A stretch of 64,000 nt of DNA. Origin: Eubacteriales bacterium. Lineage in GTDB: Bacteria > Bacillota > Clostridia > Oscillospirales > CAG-382. The stretch spans positions 3,588 to 67,587 of the forward strand of contig JAZUOO010000022.1 of the NCBI GenBank assembly GCA_045604705.1, written 5' to 3'. The notes under the pieces were generated by a model. That model was not told where the DNA came from, searched no databases, and saw only the letters and a program-made list of their open reading frames with translations. The translations under genes were made by a program, and so were the position numbers. This document shows positions 1-26,433 of this stretch, piece by piece. How positions within the stretch are numbered: position 1 is the first letter of the stretch; every line of letters begins with the position of its first letter.

Positions 1-510
1 AACAATTTCTGCCGCTGAAGACTGCTGTGCATTACCTGTATCAACACCTTCAGTCATGTAAGACTGGAGAGAGCTGGAGTCGATGGATTCGATAAGACCC
101 GTTGAAATAATAACGGGGATAAAGAATATCGCACGGAATACACCTCTGCCTATCATCTTCTGATTGAGTACCACCGCCATAAAGAGTGCGAAGATTACGA
201 TAGCGGGGACATCAAAGAGAAGCTGCTGTATACTGGCTATAAGTATCTGAAGGAACTGCGGGTCAGAGAAGATGGCTTCCCTGTAGTTCTCAAAGCCGCA
301 GAATGTAAGGGTGAACTGACCCTTAGGCATGGAAATAAGATTAAAGCTGTACCAAATCGAATTTAAAAGTATCGGCAGATATATAAAGACAAGTCCGATA
401 ACAAAGGGTAATACGAACCACCAACCGGCACGTGCCTTCTTTCTGTCAAGAGAGGCAGGCTTAGCCCTTTTGGTTACAGGCATCTGCTTTTTTGAAATTG
501 TATTATTCAT
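1..510 (-). CDS. carbohydrate ABC transporter permease (partial; continues beyond window start)
   Basis: Own translation from ATG at 510: MNNTISKKQM...GWWFVLPFVIGL...GFENYREAIFSDP...RGVFRAIFFIPVII, typical MalF/UgpA-type permease N-terminus; open to base 1; RBS GGAGAGGTG upstream. Confidence 0.85.
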   Translation of the reverse strand, partial: MNNTISKKQMPVTKRAKPASLDRKKARAGWWFVLPFVIGLVFIYLPILLNSIWYSFNLISMPKGQFTLTFCGFENYREAIFSDPQFLQILIASIQQLLFDVPAIVIFALFMAVVLNQKMIGRGVFRAIFFIPVIISTGLIESIDSSSLQSYMTEGVDTGNAQQSSAAEIV

Positions 511-17583: not shown

Positions 17584-18477
17584 ATGTTCGGATATATACG
17601 TCCATATGAAGACGAGCTTCGGGTAAAAAGCCTCAAGCTGTACAGATGCATCTACTGCGGACTATGTAAAAGTGCCGGCAAGCATATCGGTATATTCTCA
17701 AGATTCTTTCTCAGCTACGACTATACCCTGTTTGCAGCTGTCCGCATGATATTTGAAAAGACTCCCTACACTTTCACTCAGAAGCGGTGCGGCTTCCATC
17801 TTTTCGCCAAAAAGAATATCGTCGCCGACAACAGCGTTCTCGCACTTTCCTCGGCAATTTTTTCCATTATGACATATTATAAAATCAAAGATAACATAAA
17901 GGATGAAAAGTTCTTCAAAGCCCTTGGTGCAAGGCTTATTCTCCCGATTGCTTTACACATGAAAAAAAAGGCTCTCAGGTGCGGATATACCGACACGGAA
18001 GCAATAATCTGCGACTGCATGGAAAGAATAGCCTCTCTTGAAAAGGAAAACTGTGCATCACCGCTTGAAATGTCTGAGGCTTTCGGCGATATGATGGGCT
18101 ATCTTTTAAAGCTGGGACTTTCCGAAGAAGACAAAGAAGATGCCTACACAGCAGGCTTTGAAATAGGGAAATTCATATATAACGCCGACGCTTTGGACGA
18201 CCTTGAAAAAGACGAAAAAAACAGCAGCTTCAATCCATATCTCAATGAATACGGGAGTGCCGAGTGTGCTGCCGAAGAAGTCAAAAAGCAGAGAAACACT
18301 CTGCTTCGTGGCACCGACACTGCGGCTGACATAATAAGCGAGAGAATGAAGCATCTTAATAGGCCCTTACGCGAGCTTTGCGAAATAGTTCAGAACATAC
18401 TTTATCTCGGCTGTCCCTCGGTCATTGACACCATACTTTTAAAAGAGGACTGCCGTAACTTTCGCAAAGGGTCGTAA
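17584..18477 (+). CDS. DUF5685 family protein
   Basis: MFGYIRP start, YCGLC, LSYD, DALDDLEKD...FNP motifs recalled for this family. Confidence 0.8.
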   Translation: MFGYIRPYEDELRVKSLKLYRCIYCGLCKSAGKHIGIFSRFFLSYDYTLFAAVRMIFEKTPYTFTQKRCGFHLFAKKNIVADNSVLALSSAIFSIMTYYKIKDNIKDEKFFKALGARLILPIALHMKKKALRCGYTDTEAIICDCMERIASLEKENCASPLEMSEAFGDMMGYLLKLGLSEEDKEDAYTAGFEIGKFIYNADALDDLEKDEKNSSFNPYLNEYGSAECAAEEVKKQRNTLLRGTDTAADIISERMKHLNRPLRELCEIVQNILYLGCPSVIDTILLKEDCRNFRKGS

Positions 18478-18503
18478 AGCGGTAACTGAAAGGAAATAAA
18501 TCA

Positions 18504-19127
18504 ATGAAAAGTCCATACGAAATACTGGGTGTATCACCGGGGGCAAGCGACGAAGAAATCAAAGCGGCATACAGAAAGCTCGCAAAAAAATATCATCCCG
18601 ATGCCAATCCCGGAAGTGAATACGCCGCAGAAAAAATGCGTGAGCTCAACGCCGCATACGACAAAATACAGGAAATGAGAAACGGAAAGTCCTCCTCGGG
18701 ATCTTCCTACGGCTCATACAATCAGTACGGCTCTGCCTCCTACGGTGACAAGGATGCCTACGAAGCCATGAAAAGCAATGCAAGAAATTACATCAATGCG
18801 GGCAACATACTTGCGGCAATAACACTGCTTCAGAACATCCCCGAGGGCTACAGAGATGCAGAATGGCATTATATCATGGGTCATGTTTATTACCGTATGA
18901 ATAATATAGGACGTGCATCAAGGGAATTTTCCATTGCTCACTCGCTTGAGCCTTCAAATGAGGAATACCGAACCGCCTTTGAATCCGCCAATTCCAGAAG
19001 CGAAGGCTATAACGACTATACCGGCGGCGGTCAGTATGAATCAACAAATATCGGCTGCTCCTGCTGTGACCTGTGTACCTGCCTGTGCTGTCTTAACTCA
19101 GTGTTTGACTGTCTTCGCGGCTGTTGA
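18504..19127 (+). CDS. J-domain (DnaJ-like) protein with TPR and Cys-rich C-terminus
   Basis: PYEILGV...[13 protein letters not shown]-domain with HPD; TPR-like AEWHY...A...EPSNEEY; tail [23 protein letters not shown]. Confidence 0.88.
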
Positions 19128-19147
19128 CAGCTTTGGAGGAATTAATA

Positions 19148-19684
19148 TTGAAAAGACTTGAAACCAAAAAAATAGCTCTTGCATCTCTGTTATGCGCTTT
19201 GTCGGTGATAATTTCCATTATGGGCTGTGTTTTTGACATGGCGGATCTTGTGGCAACGTCAGCCTCTTCGGTTATCGTCGCACTTGCAAGAATTGAACTT
19301 CGAGGAAAGTATCCTTATCTTATCTATGCCGTGGTAAGTGTATTGCTGTTCCTGCTTTTTCCGACAGCCACGGTCACGCTGTATTTTATCCTTTTCTTCG
19401 GATACTATCCGATAATACGCGATTTCCTTGCAAAAACACCTAAGTATATATGTCTTATATTGAAGTTCGCTGTTTTTAATACGGCGATAATTTTCATATA
19501 TTTTCTGATGAAAAAGCTTCTCCTTTTTGAGCAAGCAGAAACGGAAAGCTACCTTATTCCGGCACTTTGGTTCGTGGCGAATATTTTCTTCGGAGTATTT
19601 GACTTTTCGCTGAATATCTTCATGTCGGCATACACTCACGTTTTCAGAAAGAAGTGGGGTATAGACAAATTTATGCTCCGTTGA
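19148..19684 (+). CDS. hypothetical membrane protein
   Basis: About 6 hydrophobic helices, FFGYYP motif; GGAGG RBS before TTG at 19148. Confidence 0.72.
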   Translation: MKRLETKKIALASLLCALSVIISIMGCVFDMADLVATSASSVIVALARIELRGKYPYLIYAVVSVLLFLLFPTATVTLYFILFFGYYPIIRDFLAKTPKYICLILKFAVFNTAIIFIYFLMKKLLLFEQAETESYLIPALWFVANIFFGVFDFSLNIFMSAYTHVFRKKWGIDKFMLR

Positions 19685-19796
19685 CCATAATATAATAATA
19701 TTTCGGGATATATTCACACAAATGTCACATTAATCGGTTATACTGATTAGGTTCAGAAAAACAATAACTTTTTATATTCAGAAAGGATCAAAAAAC

Positions 19797-20930
19797 ATGA
19801 AAAAGAACAGAATTTTTGCAATGTCGTTGGCTACACTTTTCTGCGTTTCTTCTTTGACAGCATGCACTTCAAAGGAGAACACAAACGATAATAAATTATC
19901 CGGCTCCGAAAAAGACCATAACCACATAGAAGCTCCCGCAGGCACCCCCAATGCTTCCGGCGATGAAGTGTTTCCCGCTTCCAAGGCAGAAGCAAAGAAG
20001 CTCGCTGACGAGATCACAAAGAGAGCAAGAGACGGCGAGGATTTTTACTCCCTGGTTGAAGAATACGGCGAAGACCCCGGAATGGTAAACAACCCCGAAG
20101 GCTATCTTTTCACATACGGAACAATGGTTAAGGAATTTGAAGAAGCTTCCTTTGCGCTTGAAGTAGGTGAAATAAGCGATCCCGTTGAAACACCCTACGG
20201 TTATCACATCATCAAGAAGCTCCCTCTCGACCTTGACCCCGCAAGTGCCGAATATCTTGACATCGCATACGCTGTCGGCGGCGATAAGCTTACAACCGAG
20301 CTTGCAGCATATGTGGAAGGACTTGAAGTTGAATACACAGACGCTTTCAACGAACTTACCGTAATGAATATGGGAACTTCCAAGGTAGCTGCAGAAAACG
20401 ATACCACAGCAGTTCCCGGCCTTGACACCTATGATTGGAAACACAGCGATAACGAAGTAATGTTCTATGTGGGAACCGCACCCGTTACCTTCGGTGAATA
20501 CCGCTACTATGCAATGGGCAACAAGGTATACATGGATAACAATAACGACTCATACTGGACAGAAGAAACCGAAGCAGAATATAAGAACACTCTCGTTGAA
20601 CAGTTCAAGCAATTTGTAGGCATAAAACTCCTTGCAACATCCGAAGCATACGGACTTGAACTTGAAGACTCCGACTACGAAAAGATAGACGAAACCATCT
20701 CAAGCTACAAAACACAGTTCGGTGAAGATGGCTTTGCGGAAGTCCTCAACGAAATCTTCGTTAATGAAGCCATATTCGAATATATGCTTGAGTATGATTT
20801 GTACACAGAAAAGCTGCTTCTCGCTAATGCATCCGCAGAGGAAATTGAAAAGTACGCCGCAGAAAACTATGTCCGTGTTCAGCACGTTCTTGTTTCCTTC
20901 ACCGAAGAAGAAGTACAGACAGCAAAATAA
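19797..20930 (+). CDS. peptidylprolyl isomerase lipoprotein (PrsA/parvulin family), circularly permuted domain order
   Basis: Lipobox LTAC (Cys23); parvulin motifs EDF..LVEEYGEDPG, MVKEFEEASFALEVGEISDPVETPYGYHIIK; first parvulin strand YVRVQHVLVSF at the extreme C-terminus. Confidence 0.85.
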   Translation: MKKNRIFAMSLATLFCVSSLTACTSKENTNDNKLSGSEKDHNHIEAPAGTPNASGDEVFPASKAEAKKLADEITKRARDGEDFYSLVEEYGEDPGMVNNPEGYLFTYGTMVKEFEEASFALEVGEISDPVETPYGYHIIKKLPLDLDPASAEYLDIAYAVGGDKLTTELAAYVEGLEVEYTDAFNELTVMNMGTSKVAAENDTTAVPGLDTYDWKHSDNEVMFYVGTAPVTFGEYRYYAMGNKVYMDNNNDSYWTEETEAEYKNTLVEQFKQFVGIKLLATSEAYGLELEDSDYEKIDETISSYKTQFGEDGFAEVLNEIFVNEAIFEYMLEYDLYTEKLLLANASAEEIEKYAAENYVRVQHVLVSFTEEEVQTAK

Positions 20931-20944
20931 AACAACAATTCCAC

Positions 20945-20973
20945 ACGGAAGCCTTAACGGGTTTCCGTTTTTT
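20945..20973 (+). terminator. rho-independent terminator
   Basis: ACGGAAGCC-loop-GGTTTCCGT followed by T-run. Confidence 0.75.
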
Positions 20974-21024
20974 ATGCAACAATATGACAACTATAAGATT
21001 TTATCAATTTTAACGAAAATTGTA

Positions 21025-21053
21025 TTGAATTATTCGGCTGTATGTTATATAAT
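21025..21053 (+). promoter_or_regulatory. sigma-A promoter of proBA
   Basis: TTGAAT-17nt-TATAAT. Confidence 0.55.
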
Positions 21054-21103
21054 AAAAAGGCAAACGCTTTCTCAAATACAATAAAAAACGGAGCATGATT
21101 AAT

Positions 21104-23413: not shown

Positions 23414-23469
23414 ATAGTGTTATAAGGACGAATATTATCATAAAATGAAAGGTGGCTTGCGTTGCACAA

Positions 23470-26433
23470 ATGAAAGAGACATCAGCAAATAACGGACTTC
23501 TTTTGGGAATAGATATAGGCTCAACGACAGCAAAAATTGTCCTTGTTGAAGACGAAAAAATTGTATACAGTAAATACGAACGCCACTATTCAAAGGTACG
23601 CGAAAAGACAGCACAGATGCTCTCGGAAATAAAACCGATAGTCGGAAACAGAACCTTTAAGGCGGCAATTTCCGGCTCCGCAGGCATGGGACTTGCACAG
23701 GTAGCAAGCATTCCCTTCGCCCAGGAGGTATTTGTCGTAGGCGAAGTGATAAGACGCAAAGAGCCTGATACCTCGGTAGTAATCGAGCTTGGTGGCGAGG
23801 ATGCAAAAATTATCTTCTTCGACGGTGCTCCCGATGAACGTATGAACGGCTCATGTGCAGGCGGTACAGGTGCATTTATAGACCAGATGGCAACACTTCT
23901 CTGCATGACCAACGACGAAATGGACAAAGCAAGCCTTGAGCACAAAAAGCTCTACCCCATCGCCTCAAGATGCGGAGTTTTCGCAAAAACCGACATACAG
24001 CCACTTCTGAATCAGGGCGCAAGCAAAGCCGACGTTGCGGCAAGTATATATCAGGCAGTTGTAAATCAAACCATCGGCGGACTTGCCCAAGGCAGAAAAA
24101 TCAAAGGCAAGGTAATGTTCCTCGGCGGTCCCCTTTTCTATTGCCTGGGACTTCGTGAAAGATTCGTTGAAACTCTCGGACTCACAGAGGAAAATGCTGT
24201 TTTCCCCGACTATGCAATATACGCAGTCGCTCTCGGAACAGCCCTGTATGCCGGCAAAGCAGGCGAAGAAAGTACCATTGATGCCTTTATTGCCGCAATA
24301 GAGAATGCAAAGAGCTATTCCTCGGGCACGGATACACTTCCGCCACTTTTTGAAAACGAATCCGAATACAATGAATTTTCCGCACGCCACGCAAAAGCCA
24401 ATGTCCAATCCAAGGATATATCGGCATACAGCGGCAATGCCTACCTCGGCATAGACTGCGGAAGCACCACAACAAAGCTGGTTCTTCTTTCCGAAAAAAA
24501 CGAAATAATATACAGCTACTACGCCTCAAACATGGGAAATCCCGTTGAGGTGGTACGGGGTGAGCTTGAAAAAATATACGCACTTTGCGAAGGCAAAATA
24601 AAAATCTGCGGAAGCGCTGTCACAGGCTACGGCGAAGAGCTTATAAAGAACGCCTTCGGGTGTGATATAGGCATAGTTGAAACCATAGCACACTATACCG
24701 CCGCAAAATACTTCTGCCCCGAGGTTGACTTCATTCTTGACATCGGCGGTCAGGACATAAAATGCTTTAAAATCAAAAACGGCGCAATAGACAGCATAAT
24801 GTTAAACGAAGCCTGCTCCTCGGGTTGCGGATCATTCCTTGAAACCTTTGCAAAATCCATGGGCTACCCTATCGCAGACTTTGCCAAAAAAGGCATCTAC
24901 GGCAAGCATCCCGTAAACCTCGGCTCAAGATGTACCGTATTTATGAATTCCTCCGTAAAGCAAGCTCAAAAAGACGGTGCAGGCGTTGAAGACATTTCCG
25001 CAGGTCTTTCCATAAGCGTTGTCAAAAACGCAATATACAAGGTAATCAGAGCCGCAAGTGCAGACGAACTGGGTACAAATATCGTTGTTCAGGGCGGTAC
25101 ATTCTACAACGATGCGGTGCTTCGTGCCTTTGAGCGTGAGCTCGGTAAAAACGTAATCCGTCCCGGTATTGCAGGACTCATGGGCGCATACGGTGCGGCA
25201 CTGTATTCAAAGAGATGCAAAGAGTCAACCCTTATCTCAAAGGATAACCTTGCAGCCTTCTTGCACACCTCAAAATCAATGACCTGCAAGGGGTGTACCA
25301 ACAACTGTCACCTGACAATAAATACCTTTGCCGACGGCAGAAAATACATATCCGGCAACAGATGCGAAAAGGGACTTGGACTTGCAAAACCTACAGCCCA
25401 AGTACCAAACCTCTACGAATTCAAGCGAAACAAGCTTCTGTCTATGCAAGGCGGTGACGGCACAAGAGGCACAATAGGACTTCCTCTAGCTCTCGGAATG
25501 TACGAGCTTCTTCCACTCTGGTACGGTATTCTCTCAAACCTCGGCTTCAAGGTTGTAATCCCGAAAATGTCCACAAGACGCACATACGAAAAAGGACAGC
25601 TTTCCATTCCGTCGGATACGGTATGCTATCCCGCAAAGCTGATGCACGGACATATAGCGGAGCTTCTCGGAGCAAAGCCCGATGCAATCTTCTACCCCTG
25701 TCTCTCATACAACATCGACGAAAAGGCTTCCGACAACCATTACAACTGTCCCGTTGTAGCATACTACTCCGAACTTCTTGTCGGCAATATTGAAGAGCTT
25801 CGAGAAACAAAATTCCTGTACCCGTACCTTAACATAAACAGCAAGAAAGAGCTTGCAAAGGAACTCTCCGACTACCTTACCAAAAAACTCTGTCCCATAA
25901 CCGTAAAGGAAGCCAAAAAAGCAGTTGACAAAGGCTTTAATCTCTACTATGACTACATGTACAGCGTAAAGCGTGAGGGTGAGCGTGCGCTCCAATTTGC
26001 AAAAGAAAACGGCAAGAGAGTCATGATTCTCGCAGGTCGTCCCTATCACATAGACCCGGAGATCTGCCACGGCATAGACGAGCTTGCAAAGAGTCTCGGC
26101 TTCGTGGTTGTCAGCGAGGACAGCGTATTCCACCTTGCAGAGCCTGTTCGCGTAAATGTTCTTAATCAGTGGACATACCACGCAAGACTCTACAGAGCGG
26201 CAATGTATGCGGCAAAGAATCCCGATGCCGAGCTTGTACAGCTTGTGTCCTTCGGCTGCGGTGTTGATGCTATAACCACGGACGAAGTAAGAAGCATACT
26301 TGAAGAAAGAGGCAAATTCTACACCCAGATAAAAATAGATGAGATAACCAACCTCGGTGCCGTAAAAATAAGGCTGAGAAGTCTTATCGGAGCAATAGAC
26401 GAAAAGAAAGAAAAGGAGAGCAGCTTGTCATGA
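23470..26433 (+). CDS. 2-hydroxyacyl-CoA dehydratase activase-like protein (two BadF/BadG ATPase domains + DUF2229-like region)
   Basis: GIDIGSTTAK and GIDCGSTTTK repeats, MNGSCAGGTG, NEACSSGCG, CKGCTNNC, SFGCG. Confidence 0.9.
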   Translation: MKETSANNGLLLGIDIGSTTAKIVLVEDEKIVYSKYERHYSKVREKTAQMLSEIKPIVGNRTFKAAISGSAGMGLAQVASIPFAQEVFVVGEVIRRKEPDTSVVIELGGEDAKIIFFDGAPDERMNGSCAGGTGAFIDQMATLLCMTNDEMDKASLEHKKLYPIASRCGVFAKTDIQPLLNQGASKADVAASIYQAVVNQTIGGLAQGRKIKGKVMFLGGPLFYCLGLRERFVETLGLTEENAVFPDYAIYAVALGTALYAGKAGEESTIDAFIAAIENAKSYSSGTDTLPPLFENESEYNEFSARHAKANVQSKDISAYSGNAYLGIDCGSTTTKLVLLSEKNEIIYSYYASNMGNPVEVVRGELEKIYALCEGKIKICGSAVTGYGEELIKNAFGCDIGIVETIAHYTAAKYFCPEVDFILDIGGQDIKCFKIKNGAIDSIMLNEACSSGCGSFLETFAKSMGYPIADFAKKGIYGKHPVNLGSRCTVFMNSSVKQAQKDGAGVEDISAGLSISVVKNAIYKVIRAASADELGTNIVVQGGTFYNDAVLRAFERELGKNVIRPGIAGLMGAYGAALYSKRCKESTLISKDNLAAFLHTSKSMTCKGCTNNCHLTINTFADGRKYISGNRCEKGLGLAKPTAQVPNLYEFKRNKLLSMQGGDGTRGTIGLPLALGMYELLPLWYGILSNLGFKVVIPKMSTRRTYEKGQLSIPSDTVCYPAKLMHGHIAELLGAKPDAIFYPCLSYNIDEKASDNHYNCPVVAYYSELLVGNIEELRETKFLYPYLNINSKKELAKELSDYLTKKLCPITVKEAKKAVDKGFNLYYDYMYSVKREGERALQFAKENGKRVMILAGRPYHIDPEICHGIDELAKSLGFVVVSEDSVFHLAEPVRVNVLNQWTYHARLYRAAMYAAKNPDAELVQLVSFGCGVDAITTDEVRSILEERGKFYTQIKIDEITNLGAVKIRLRSLIGAIDEKKEKESSLS

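Follow-up and report, generated by a model that had tools for sequence, protein, structure and literature searches.

A probable natural circular permutant of a PrsA/parvulin lipoprotein foldase in a bacterium of the Eubacteriales

We analysed a stretch of 64,000 nucleotides from an Eubacteriales bacterium (contig JAZUOO010000022.1 of assembly GCA_045604705.1), hereafter the window, and in it an open reading frame (ORF) on the plus strand at 19797..20930. The ORF encodes 377 amino acids (aa) plus the stop codon, and matches to profiles and relatives assign it to the lipoprotein foldases of the PrsA type, in a permuted form. Its product is very probably a genuine natural circular permutant of a PrsA/parvulin foldase, and presumably a functional one. 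It resembles PrsA of Bacillus subtilis and the Gram-positive homologues (4wo7, 6vj6, 5htf, 5tvl and 9ibn/PpiC) in being a lipoprotein with a parvulin peptidyl-prolyl isomerase (PPIase) domain and a chaperone domain formed by the N and C regions (NC domain). Unlike in PrsA, the order of the parts is rotated: the lipobox is followed by parvulin helix 1 to strand 4, the C region, the N region and, at the very end, parvulin strand 1. A first-pass annotation made from the DNA letters had proposed that the PrsA/parvulin halves are swapped, and this was borne out by the reversed matches described below; the residue ranges that it gave for the segments were right to within a few residues.

The swapped order becomes evident when the protein is compared with relatives of canonical order. 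In the canonical lipoprotein P0007 (378 aa), the signal peptide and linker at residues 1-59 are matched by query residues 1-58. Residues 243-373 of P0007 are then matched by query 64-194 (62% identity, expect value (E) 9e-52), and residues 52-232 by query 191-372 (46% identity, E 4e-52). The canonical relative P0010 gave high-scoring segment pairs that are likewise reversed, at E 3e-64 and 5e-34; none of these matches can be put down to chance. With B. subtilis PrsA (4wo7), query 290-366 matched chain residues 51-127, ending in the strand of the first histidine, and query 67-142 matched chain residues 130-206. Every permuted protein carries one A and one B segment. Thus, each block is single, and the arrangement is a circular permutation and not a repeat protein. 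The break had been expected after parvulin strand 1, and comparison with relatives located it in the strand 1-helix 1 loop.

The profile searches agree with this picture. The sole Pfam domain in the protein is the parvulin at aa 61-140, found by Rotamase_3 with 71.3 bits (cut-off 22.5) and by Rotamase with 64.5 bits (cut-off 21.7). The match covers positions 13-94 of the 97 positions of the Rotamase profile; since it begins only at position 13, the parvulin strand on the N side is absent from this place. The Rotamase_3 match starts at profile position 31 here, versus positions 11 and 13 in two other parvulin genes of the same genome.

The segments can be followed along the plus strand as follows. 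The lipoprotein signal peptide occupies aa 1-23 (19797..19865) and aligns to the signal peptides of the canonical relatives; LTAC at aa 20-23 fits the lipobox consensus, and C23, the cysteine predicted to be lipidated, is invariant in all nine aligned permuted proteins. A disordered tether follows at aa 24-61 (19866..19979). It is homologous to the beginning of the linker that follows the lipobox in canonical proteins, is similar to the linker of P0006 and P0010, and belongs to a region where the predicted local distance difference test score (pLDDT) of our structure model is below 50 (residues 1-56). The parvulin PPIase core without strand 1, that is, helix 1 to strand 4, lies at aa 62-143 (19980..20225; Rotamase_3 E 1.3e-19, with matches to PrsA and Pin1 structures in the Protein Data Bank (PDB)). 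The C-terminal segment of the NC chaperone domain at aa 144-196 (20226..20384) is matched by P0007 and stops where the canonical relatives stop. The new internal junction at aa 197-220 (20385..20456) consists of the canonical C-terminal tail and the second part of the canonical post-lipobox linker; pLDDT falls here to block means of 77 and 68, and below 50 at residues 200-202. Then comes the N-terminal part of the NC domain, a beta-hairpin and helices at aa 221-357 (20457..20867), which is matched by P0007, 4wo7 and SurA. Parvulin strand 1 stands at the C-terminus, at aa 358-367 (20868..20897). It contains the motif VRVQHVLV with H363, is assigned as a strand by DSSP and has block pLDDT values of 94 and 87. 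The chain ends with a short acidic tail at aa 368-377 and the stop codon (20898..20930). This tail is what is left of the beginning of the strand 1-helix 1 loop, and its pLDDT is below 50 at residues 371-377.

The first-pass annotation had also pointed to two conserved parvulin histidines in reversed order, H137 and H363. Both are invariant in the nine permuted proteins, and so are D93, M110, F114 and T132. In the matching columns of 46 canonical relatives, H216, H293 and F270 never vary, and D249 and M266 hardly do. By analogy with Pin1, H363, D93, T132, H137, M110 and F114 would form the parvulin active site, which has two His, an Asp/Cys, a Ser/Thr and a proline pocket of Met/Phe. In the conservation of the active-site histidines and pocket residues the protein is like PrsA.

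The order could in principle be an artefact of assembly or gene calling, given that the window comes from a draft genome of 68 contigs. The near-identical contigs from sequencing runs are short and gapped, leaving 19855-19956 and 20569-20721 uncovered. The runs that carry them are DNA runs of small share, and the listed runs include no RNA run. However, one such contig (run X2, record 9) spans 20266-20442 without a single difference and bridges the internal junction, the very place where a chimeric assembly had been feared. Collinear permuted relatives with 57-66% identity, homologues of the kind that the first-pass annotation had recommended looking for, turned up in other assemblies (P0002, P0003, P0005 and G002): P0002 lies on a 208 kb contig from NCBI, P0003 comes from 15 contigs (JGI, Logan and ENA), and the species genome G002 is collinear over query 1-373 with 66% identity. 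The same order thus recurs across a number of independent assemblies and data sources, and three divergent groups of sequences share it. The ORF has an unbroken frame, start signals and a terminator of its own, and is under purifying selection. An artefact is therefore extremely improbable.

The permuted gene is conserved under purifying selection. The ratio of nonsynonymous to synonymous substitution rates (dN/dS) between the two permuted orthologues, G000 and G002, calculated with the NG86 method, comes to about 0.18 for the whole gene, with 0.12 for the parvulin/C block and 0.13 for the N block; these values are rough, because dS is about 1.5 and near saturation. In the linkers, dN/dS rises to 0.34-0.46 and identity is 38-50%. 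The terminal strand is identical at 11 of 11 residues (dN 0), despite synonymous changes (proportion of synonymous differences (pS) 0.36).

To see how the rotated chain might fold, we used AlphaFold2 (AF2) models. The model of the permuted protein was built on an alignment of 9 sequences only; its mean pLDDT is 79.9 and its predicted template modelling score (pTM) 0.69, with residues 60-370 mostly above 90. Its last element is a strand by DSSP at 358-367 (pLDDT about 90). The model of the canonical P0010, from an alignment of 46 sequences, has a pLDDT of 86.7. Each of the 19 elements listed for the P0010 model is found again in the permuted model, and their cyclic order is the same; the permuted model differs in that a helix is split in two and a four-residue strand replaces a two-residue bridge. 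The strands with which the NC domain begins and ends are neighbouring elements in both models.

The canonical sister is modelled collinearly with full PrsA structures (Z 16.7-17.4; 219 residues at Z 16.7 for 4wo7_A, 230 residues for 5htf_A and 223 for 6vj6_A). The permuted model aligns with PrsA structures over the parvulin part only (Z about 10). With Pin1, the canonical model aligns over 52..163 (Z 15.4, 1.0 Å), and the permuted one only over 75..163 (Z about 10). Likewise, a Foldseek search of the permuted model against PDB gave no global match and found the parvulin piece alone (query TM-score (TMq) about 0.2). This is what a sequential aligner is expected to give for a permutant. The best match of the permuted model was 8hm3_B (101 residues, 2.1 Å, Z 13.5), in which model residues 60..370 fall onto one stretch of 104 residues. 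Small single domains also align across model residues 61..~370 with the NC region skipped, for example, 3cwf_B over 61..367. The chaperone module of SurA was matched over model residues 217..358 (Z 7.0). The superpositions on 8hm3_B and on the small domains show that, in the permuted model, the terminal strand belongs to the parvulin domain. An AlphaFold model had been suggested as a check on this strand, and AF2 indeed places it (pLDDT about 90) together with the parvulin core in one compact domain. From the model we infer that strand 358-367 pairs with the parvulin sheet, beside the strand of H137.

It is conceivable that the parvulin domain is crippled, the terminal strand lying outside the sheet and the protein acting as a chaperone alone. 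NC domains of the PrsA type have roles that are independent of PPIase activity, according to PMC12524980, and the docking of the strand is a model prediction. On the other hand, conservation in the protein is highest in the terminal strand, as its identity between G000 and G002 and the invariance of H363 indicate, all pocket residues are invariant, and the model gives the strand high confidence within a domain of parvulin size. We therefore regard a crippled parvulin as very unlikely.

The match to 8hm3 deserves a separate remark. Residues 191..294 of 8hm3_B and 8hm4_A (PPIase, from the BfUbb study) superpose on the permuted model over 100-101 residues at 2.1-2.2 Å, with Z 13.5 and 12.8, and the segment after parvulin strand 4 of 8hm3 superposes on the terminal strand of the window protein. 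Yet the canonical model can be aligned globally to 8hm3 (chain 31..446, Z 13.3), with N region, parvulin and C region in that order. In 8hm3, the position of parvulin strand 1 may be filled from the C side, or a strand may be exchanged; if this is true, 8hm3 would be a structural precedent for a permuted parvulin. It was not among the matches in PDB queries with P0268 or with the 38-residue C-terminal piece, and PMC11467351 mentions neither 'parvulin' nor 'PPIase domain'. In addition, residues 159..356 of the permuted model, the NC module in C-then-N order, are weakly collinear with the C-terminal chaperone domain of trigger factor (2nsa_A, Z 5.4, 122 residues; 3gty_X, Z 5.0), with scores too low to build on.

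Some of our data weigh against the reading of the protein as a functional PrsA permutant, and they are better considered together. The NCBIfam models of PrsA detect the same parvulin piece at 47-67 bits, with cut-offs of 343-361; the best model of the PrsA type gave 67.2 bits (cut-off 360) and the PrsA equivalog 49.4 bits (cut-off 361). As the collinear order of N region, parvulin and C region does not occur in the protein, we consider it a permuted derivative of the PrsA family and not a collinear member. The near-identical run contigs possibly derive from the same source sample as the window, and the N-side junction (~19965-19990) is covered only by contigs that are less than 95% alike. That strand 358-367 touches strands 135-142 and 103-106 is deduced from DSSP, pLDDT and superpositions, in a model with few sequences behind it, and the dN/dS values come with the saturation already noted. 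Finally, the genome itself encodes a second PrsA-type lipoprotein of canonical order (L029:904-2022 on contig C66, 372 aa, lipobox LASC), and therefore the permuted gene need not be the one with the essential function.

The permutation recurs in other lineages, a point absent from the first-pass annotation. We retrieved 359 proteins by similarity and classified them by the order of their blocks: 288 are canonical, 10 are single-unit permuted, 59 have the parvulin/C block only, one has the N block only, and one is a tandem fusion. As the queries were permuted proteins, these shares are no estimate of prevalence. Some candidates did not survive inspection as permutants: proteins such as P0123, P0125 and P0149 are tandem-parvulin repeat proteins with an N-terminal parvulin. 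P0144, flagged by the classifier as permuted, was also rejected, since its block order shows a tandem fusion. The permuted proteins fall into three sequence groups, namely P0001-P0005, P0192/P0254/P0255/P0199, and P0165. The second and third groups are metagenomic and 28-31% identical to the window protein, with the same break loop, a lipobox and the terminal histidine strand. They differ from it in much shorter tethers and junctions (the internal junction has about 24 residues in the window's group versus about 4-8 in the other two) and in their place in the tree. Close relatives of P0192 were not found in any of 400 other sampled genomes of the window's order (E 1e-30).

For the tree, the two homologous blocks were excised and set in a common order, which gave 306 columns for 56 of the 263 usable proteins. 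The rows were nine permuted proteins, the 14 nearest canonical proteins for each of them, and every twelfth protein of the rest. P0004 was left out, as its segments were at zero distance from those of P0003 in a quick tree. This 395-aa protein begins with an N-terminus like ribosomal protein L9 (PF01281), followed by the permuted foldase; it is probably a gene-call or assembly fusion on its 4.7 kb contig. In the maximum-likelihood tree, three changes of order are needed, and a single origin occurs in none of 200 bootstrap trees. The window's permuted clade is nested among 16 canonical rows with 99/99 support. The approximately unbiased (AU) test rejected a single clade of all permuted proteins (log-likelihood (lnL) difference 172.6, p 2.3e-9), and a tree in which P0165 is joined to the P0192 group is worse by 33.5 lnL units (p 0.028), which is marginal. 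As the grouping of P0165 with P0192 was named after the tree had been seen, we consider two origins firm and three likely. In the second and third groups, the junction corresponds to the C-terminus plus the linker end of their own canonical relatives, which fits separate events.

The genus of the window bacterium holds both forms. Among its seven species genomes in our collection, two carry the permuted gene, four the canonical one, and G004 is without a close match. In G001, G003, G005 and G006, the canonical gene lies directly after the homologue of the membrane-protein ORF 19220-19684; genes for a DnaJ-domain protein and a DUF5685 protein are found further upstream in G001, G003 and G006, as in the window, and searches for these two genes in G005 gave no match. 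The chromosomal position is the same; therefore, the permuted gene is a positional orthologue that was rearranged in place. The canonical lipoproteins of the genus (in these four genomes; proteins P0006, P0010 and P0007) share with it the locus, the type of signal peptide and 46-62% identity over the blocks. They form its sister groups in the tree and have the order N region, strand 1, loop, parvulin, C region. Two side observations concern these canonical relatives. The canonical-order orthologue at G003:C95:27535-27954 contains two TAA codons inside its parvulin/C-block match, so it may be broken within this block. In P0010, the stretch from strand 1 to helix 2 (…HILVDTEEKANEIL…ISFEDAAKEYSSC…) is nearer to a parvulin paralogue without a signal peptide, of the type encoded by a 249-aa ORF on contig C43 of the window's genome (L027:1162-1911), than to its own clade. 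This likeness suggests that parvulin paralogues may have recombined.

Set against its sister P0006, the window protein has two neighbouring blocks cleanly exchanged. Its new N-side linker corresponds to the first half of the P0006 linker, the internal junction is the canonical C-terminus plus the second half of the canonical linker, and the strand 1-helix 1 loop is split between the new C-terminal tail and the lead-in to helix 1. In 274 canonical relatives, the spacing from the histidine to the G..F motif has a median of 33 residues; it was counted with a crude regular expression, and some values are wrong where the motif recurs inside the loop. For B. subtilis PrsA the spacing is about 19 by our count in the 4wo7 alignment, with the short gap between its two aligned blocks included. 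Long strand 1-helix 1 loops are general to the subfamily and not special to the sisters of the permuted clades. Apparently, the family is easily permuted, because the first and last NC strands are adjacent and this loop is long.

The canonical gene at this locus would thus have been permuted in place, the two adjacent coding blocks being swapped; both breakpoints fall in flexible parts of the chain, one in the post-lipobox linker and the other in the long strand 1-helix 1 loop. The route was probably, at moderate confidence, an in-frame tandem fusion followed by trimming, in which the first N-block and the last parvulin/C-block would have been lost. Elsewhere in the family there are tandem PrsA-PrsA fusions, namely P0144 (a cluster of 6; 734 aa), whose halves are 37% identical, and P0236 (796 aa, from an Epulopiscium record), whose halves are 49% identical, each consisting of N/strand 1 and parvulin/C, repeated. 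P0144 also has copper-amine-oxidase-like N-terminal modules before each unit, judging from the Pfam matches of its relatives. Such fusions mean that the intermediate of the duplication route is viable. They contain the same blocks as the window protein in the architecture expected of a duplication intermediate, and differ from it in having two complete units, 37-49% identical between halves, and in not being close to its clade. Tandem duplication and trimming had been put forward in the first-pass annotation. It fits the junction anatomy and the fusions elsewhere, but a search for double-length proteins found no intermediate close to the window's clade, which counts, as weak evidence, against this route. 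The canonical paralogue on contig C66 could have buffered the intermediates of the rearrangement.

A block swap without tandem duplication is possible, although unlikely: the N-block could have been transposed to the 3' end, or the gene could have passed through circular excision and reintegration or through fission and refusion. Neither junction has duplicated linker or loop residues, which gives the rearrangement a clean cut-and-paste look, and a double-length close relative was not found. Several competing genetic models for natural permutants are given in the CPSARST paper (PMC2395249). However, the linkers evolve so fast (see the dN/dS and identity values above) that small duplications would be erased, and complete tandem fusions are present in the family. 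Moreover, every intermediate of the duplication route could function, while a fission intermediate would split both domains.

In the mature protein, Cys23 would be lipidated, and a flexible tether of about 38 residues would lead straight into parvulin helix 1. Parvulin strands 2-4, the usual C-terminal PrsA segment, a loop of about 24 residues and the usual N-terminal segment would follow, and the chain would end with parvulin strand 1 bearing the first active-site histidine, H363. This last strand is predicted to fold back into the parvulin sheet beside the H137 strand, so that the active site would be assembled, intact, from both ends of the chain. The two-domain structure of a parvulin PPIase and an NC chaperone module would be the same as in PrsA, with the NC module now continuous and the parvulin split. 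The earlier suggestion that the permutation places the membrane anchor next to the PPIase domain holds in that the anchor leads into parvulin helix 1; the two are separated, however, by the disordered linker of about 38 residues (pLDDT <50). The most likely task of the protein is that of canonical PrsA, namely, prolyl isomerisation and chaperoning of secreted proteins at the outer face of the membrane; its enzymatic activity is inferred.

The permutation may also be non-neutral, rewiring quaternary structure and tethering. If the hairpin folds back on its own chain, the protein could be a monomer or a different dimer; the lipid tether would pull on the PPIase and not on the chaperone domain, and the recurrence would reflect selection. 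The C-terminal region and the N-terminal hairpin, which is usually domain-swapped, are now covalently joined by a junction of about 24 residues, or about 4-8 in the other groups, and the swap arose at least twice. According to PMC12524980, deletion of the hairpin motif or the C-terminal helix makes the protein monomeric. Yet the point of attachment may be unimportant, as each tether is long and disordered; the recurrence is equally explained if this is the sole tolerated break site; and each permuted group is small. We consider such rewiring unlikely. That the swap was fixed three times for its function, through an un-swapped PrsA dimer (a monomer or a re-shaped bowl), anchoring on the PPIase side and altered handling of clients, is likewise a tentative and rather unlikely suggestion.

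The gene appears to be complete with its signals. A ribosome-binding site, AAAGGA, lies at 19782..19787 on the plus strand, with the ATG 9 nt further on, and a hairpin resembling an intrinsic terminator, with 10 pairs (5 of them G-C) and the T-run TTTTTAT, lies at 20945..20975 on the same strand. Together with the lipobox LTAC and the open frame, these elements agree with the earlier statement that ribosome-binding site, signal peptide, frame and terminator are intact. A consensus scan also gave a promoter-like site at 19662..19691 on the plus strand (TAGACA, an 18 nt spacer and CATAAT, 10 of 12 matches), which alone is no evidence of function. Scans of the window for tRNAs and Rfam families gave no matches. 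Upstream (17584-19684) lie genes for a DUF5685 protein, a DnaJ-domain/TPR protein and a 186-aa membrane protein without a family, and this trio is kept next to the foldase gene in G001, G003 and G006. Downstream in the window are proB, proA and a gene for a 993-aa CoA-enzyme activase of the BadF/BcrA type (feature span 23452-26433). The gap between the foldase gene and proB is 164 bp in the window (20931-21094) versus about 5.5 kb in G001 and G002 (L022, L023); this difference in spacing is an insertion or deletion adjoining the locus.

Circular permutation itself is well known; the saposin/swaposin pair and DNA methyltransferases are natural examples. As in natural permutants generally, the sequence of the window protein joins the old termini and opens new ones in a loop; that the three-dimensional fold stays the same is predicted by the models. 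Unlike in these general cases, the permutation affects a nested two-domain architecture and swaps which domain is continuous, and canonical positional orthologues survive in the genus. The recurrence and the matched orthologues in one genus add interest to the case. Our literature search, weak on subscription journals, found no publication linking circular permutation with parvulin, or with a peptidyl-prolyl plus chaperone domain; the publications that join 'circularly permuted' with PrsA are unrelated, judging by their titles and the openings of their abstracts. The one named database record of a permuted protein is annotated as 'hypothetical protein', and for annotation in general it matters that collinear family models miss the permuted protein.

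Foldases of the PrsA type are important in Gram-positive protein secretion and serve to improve the yield of enzymes. From a natural permutant it can be seen that the architecture of a parvulin set into an NC domain tolerates opening in the strand 1-helix 1 loop and closure across the old termini, which is useful for engineering. The permutation is recent and datable, since both forms stand at the same locus in sister species, and it recurs at the same site elsewhere. Thus, the case allows direct tests of the duplication-and-trimming model and of the role of chain topology in domain-swapped dimerisation. If the rewiring were true, the matched permuted and canonical orthologues would be a natural experiment on how topology controls chaperone assembly.

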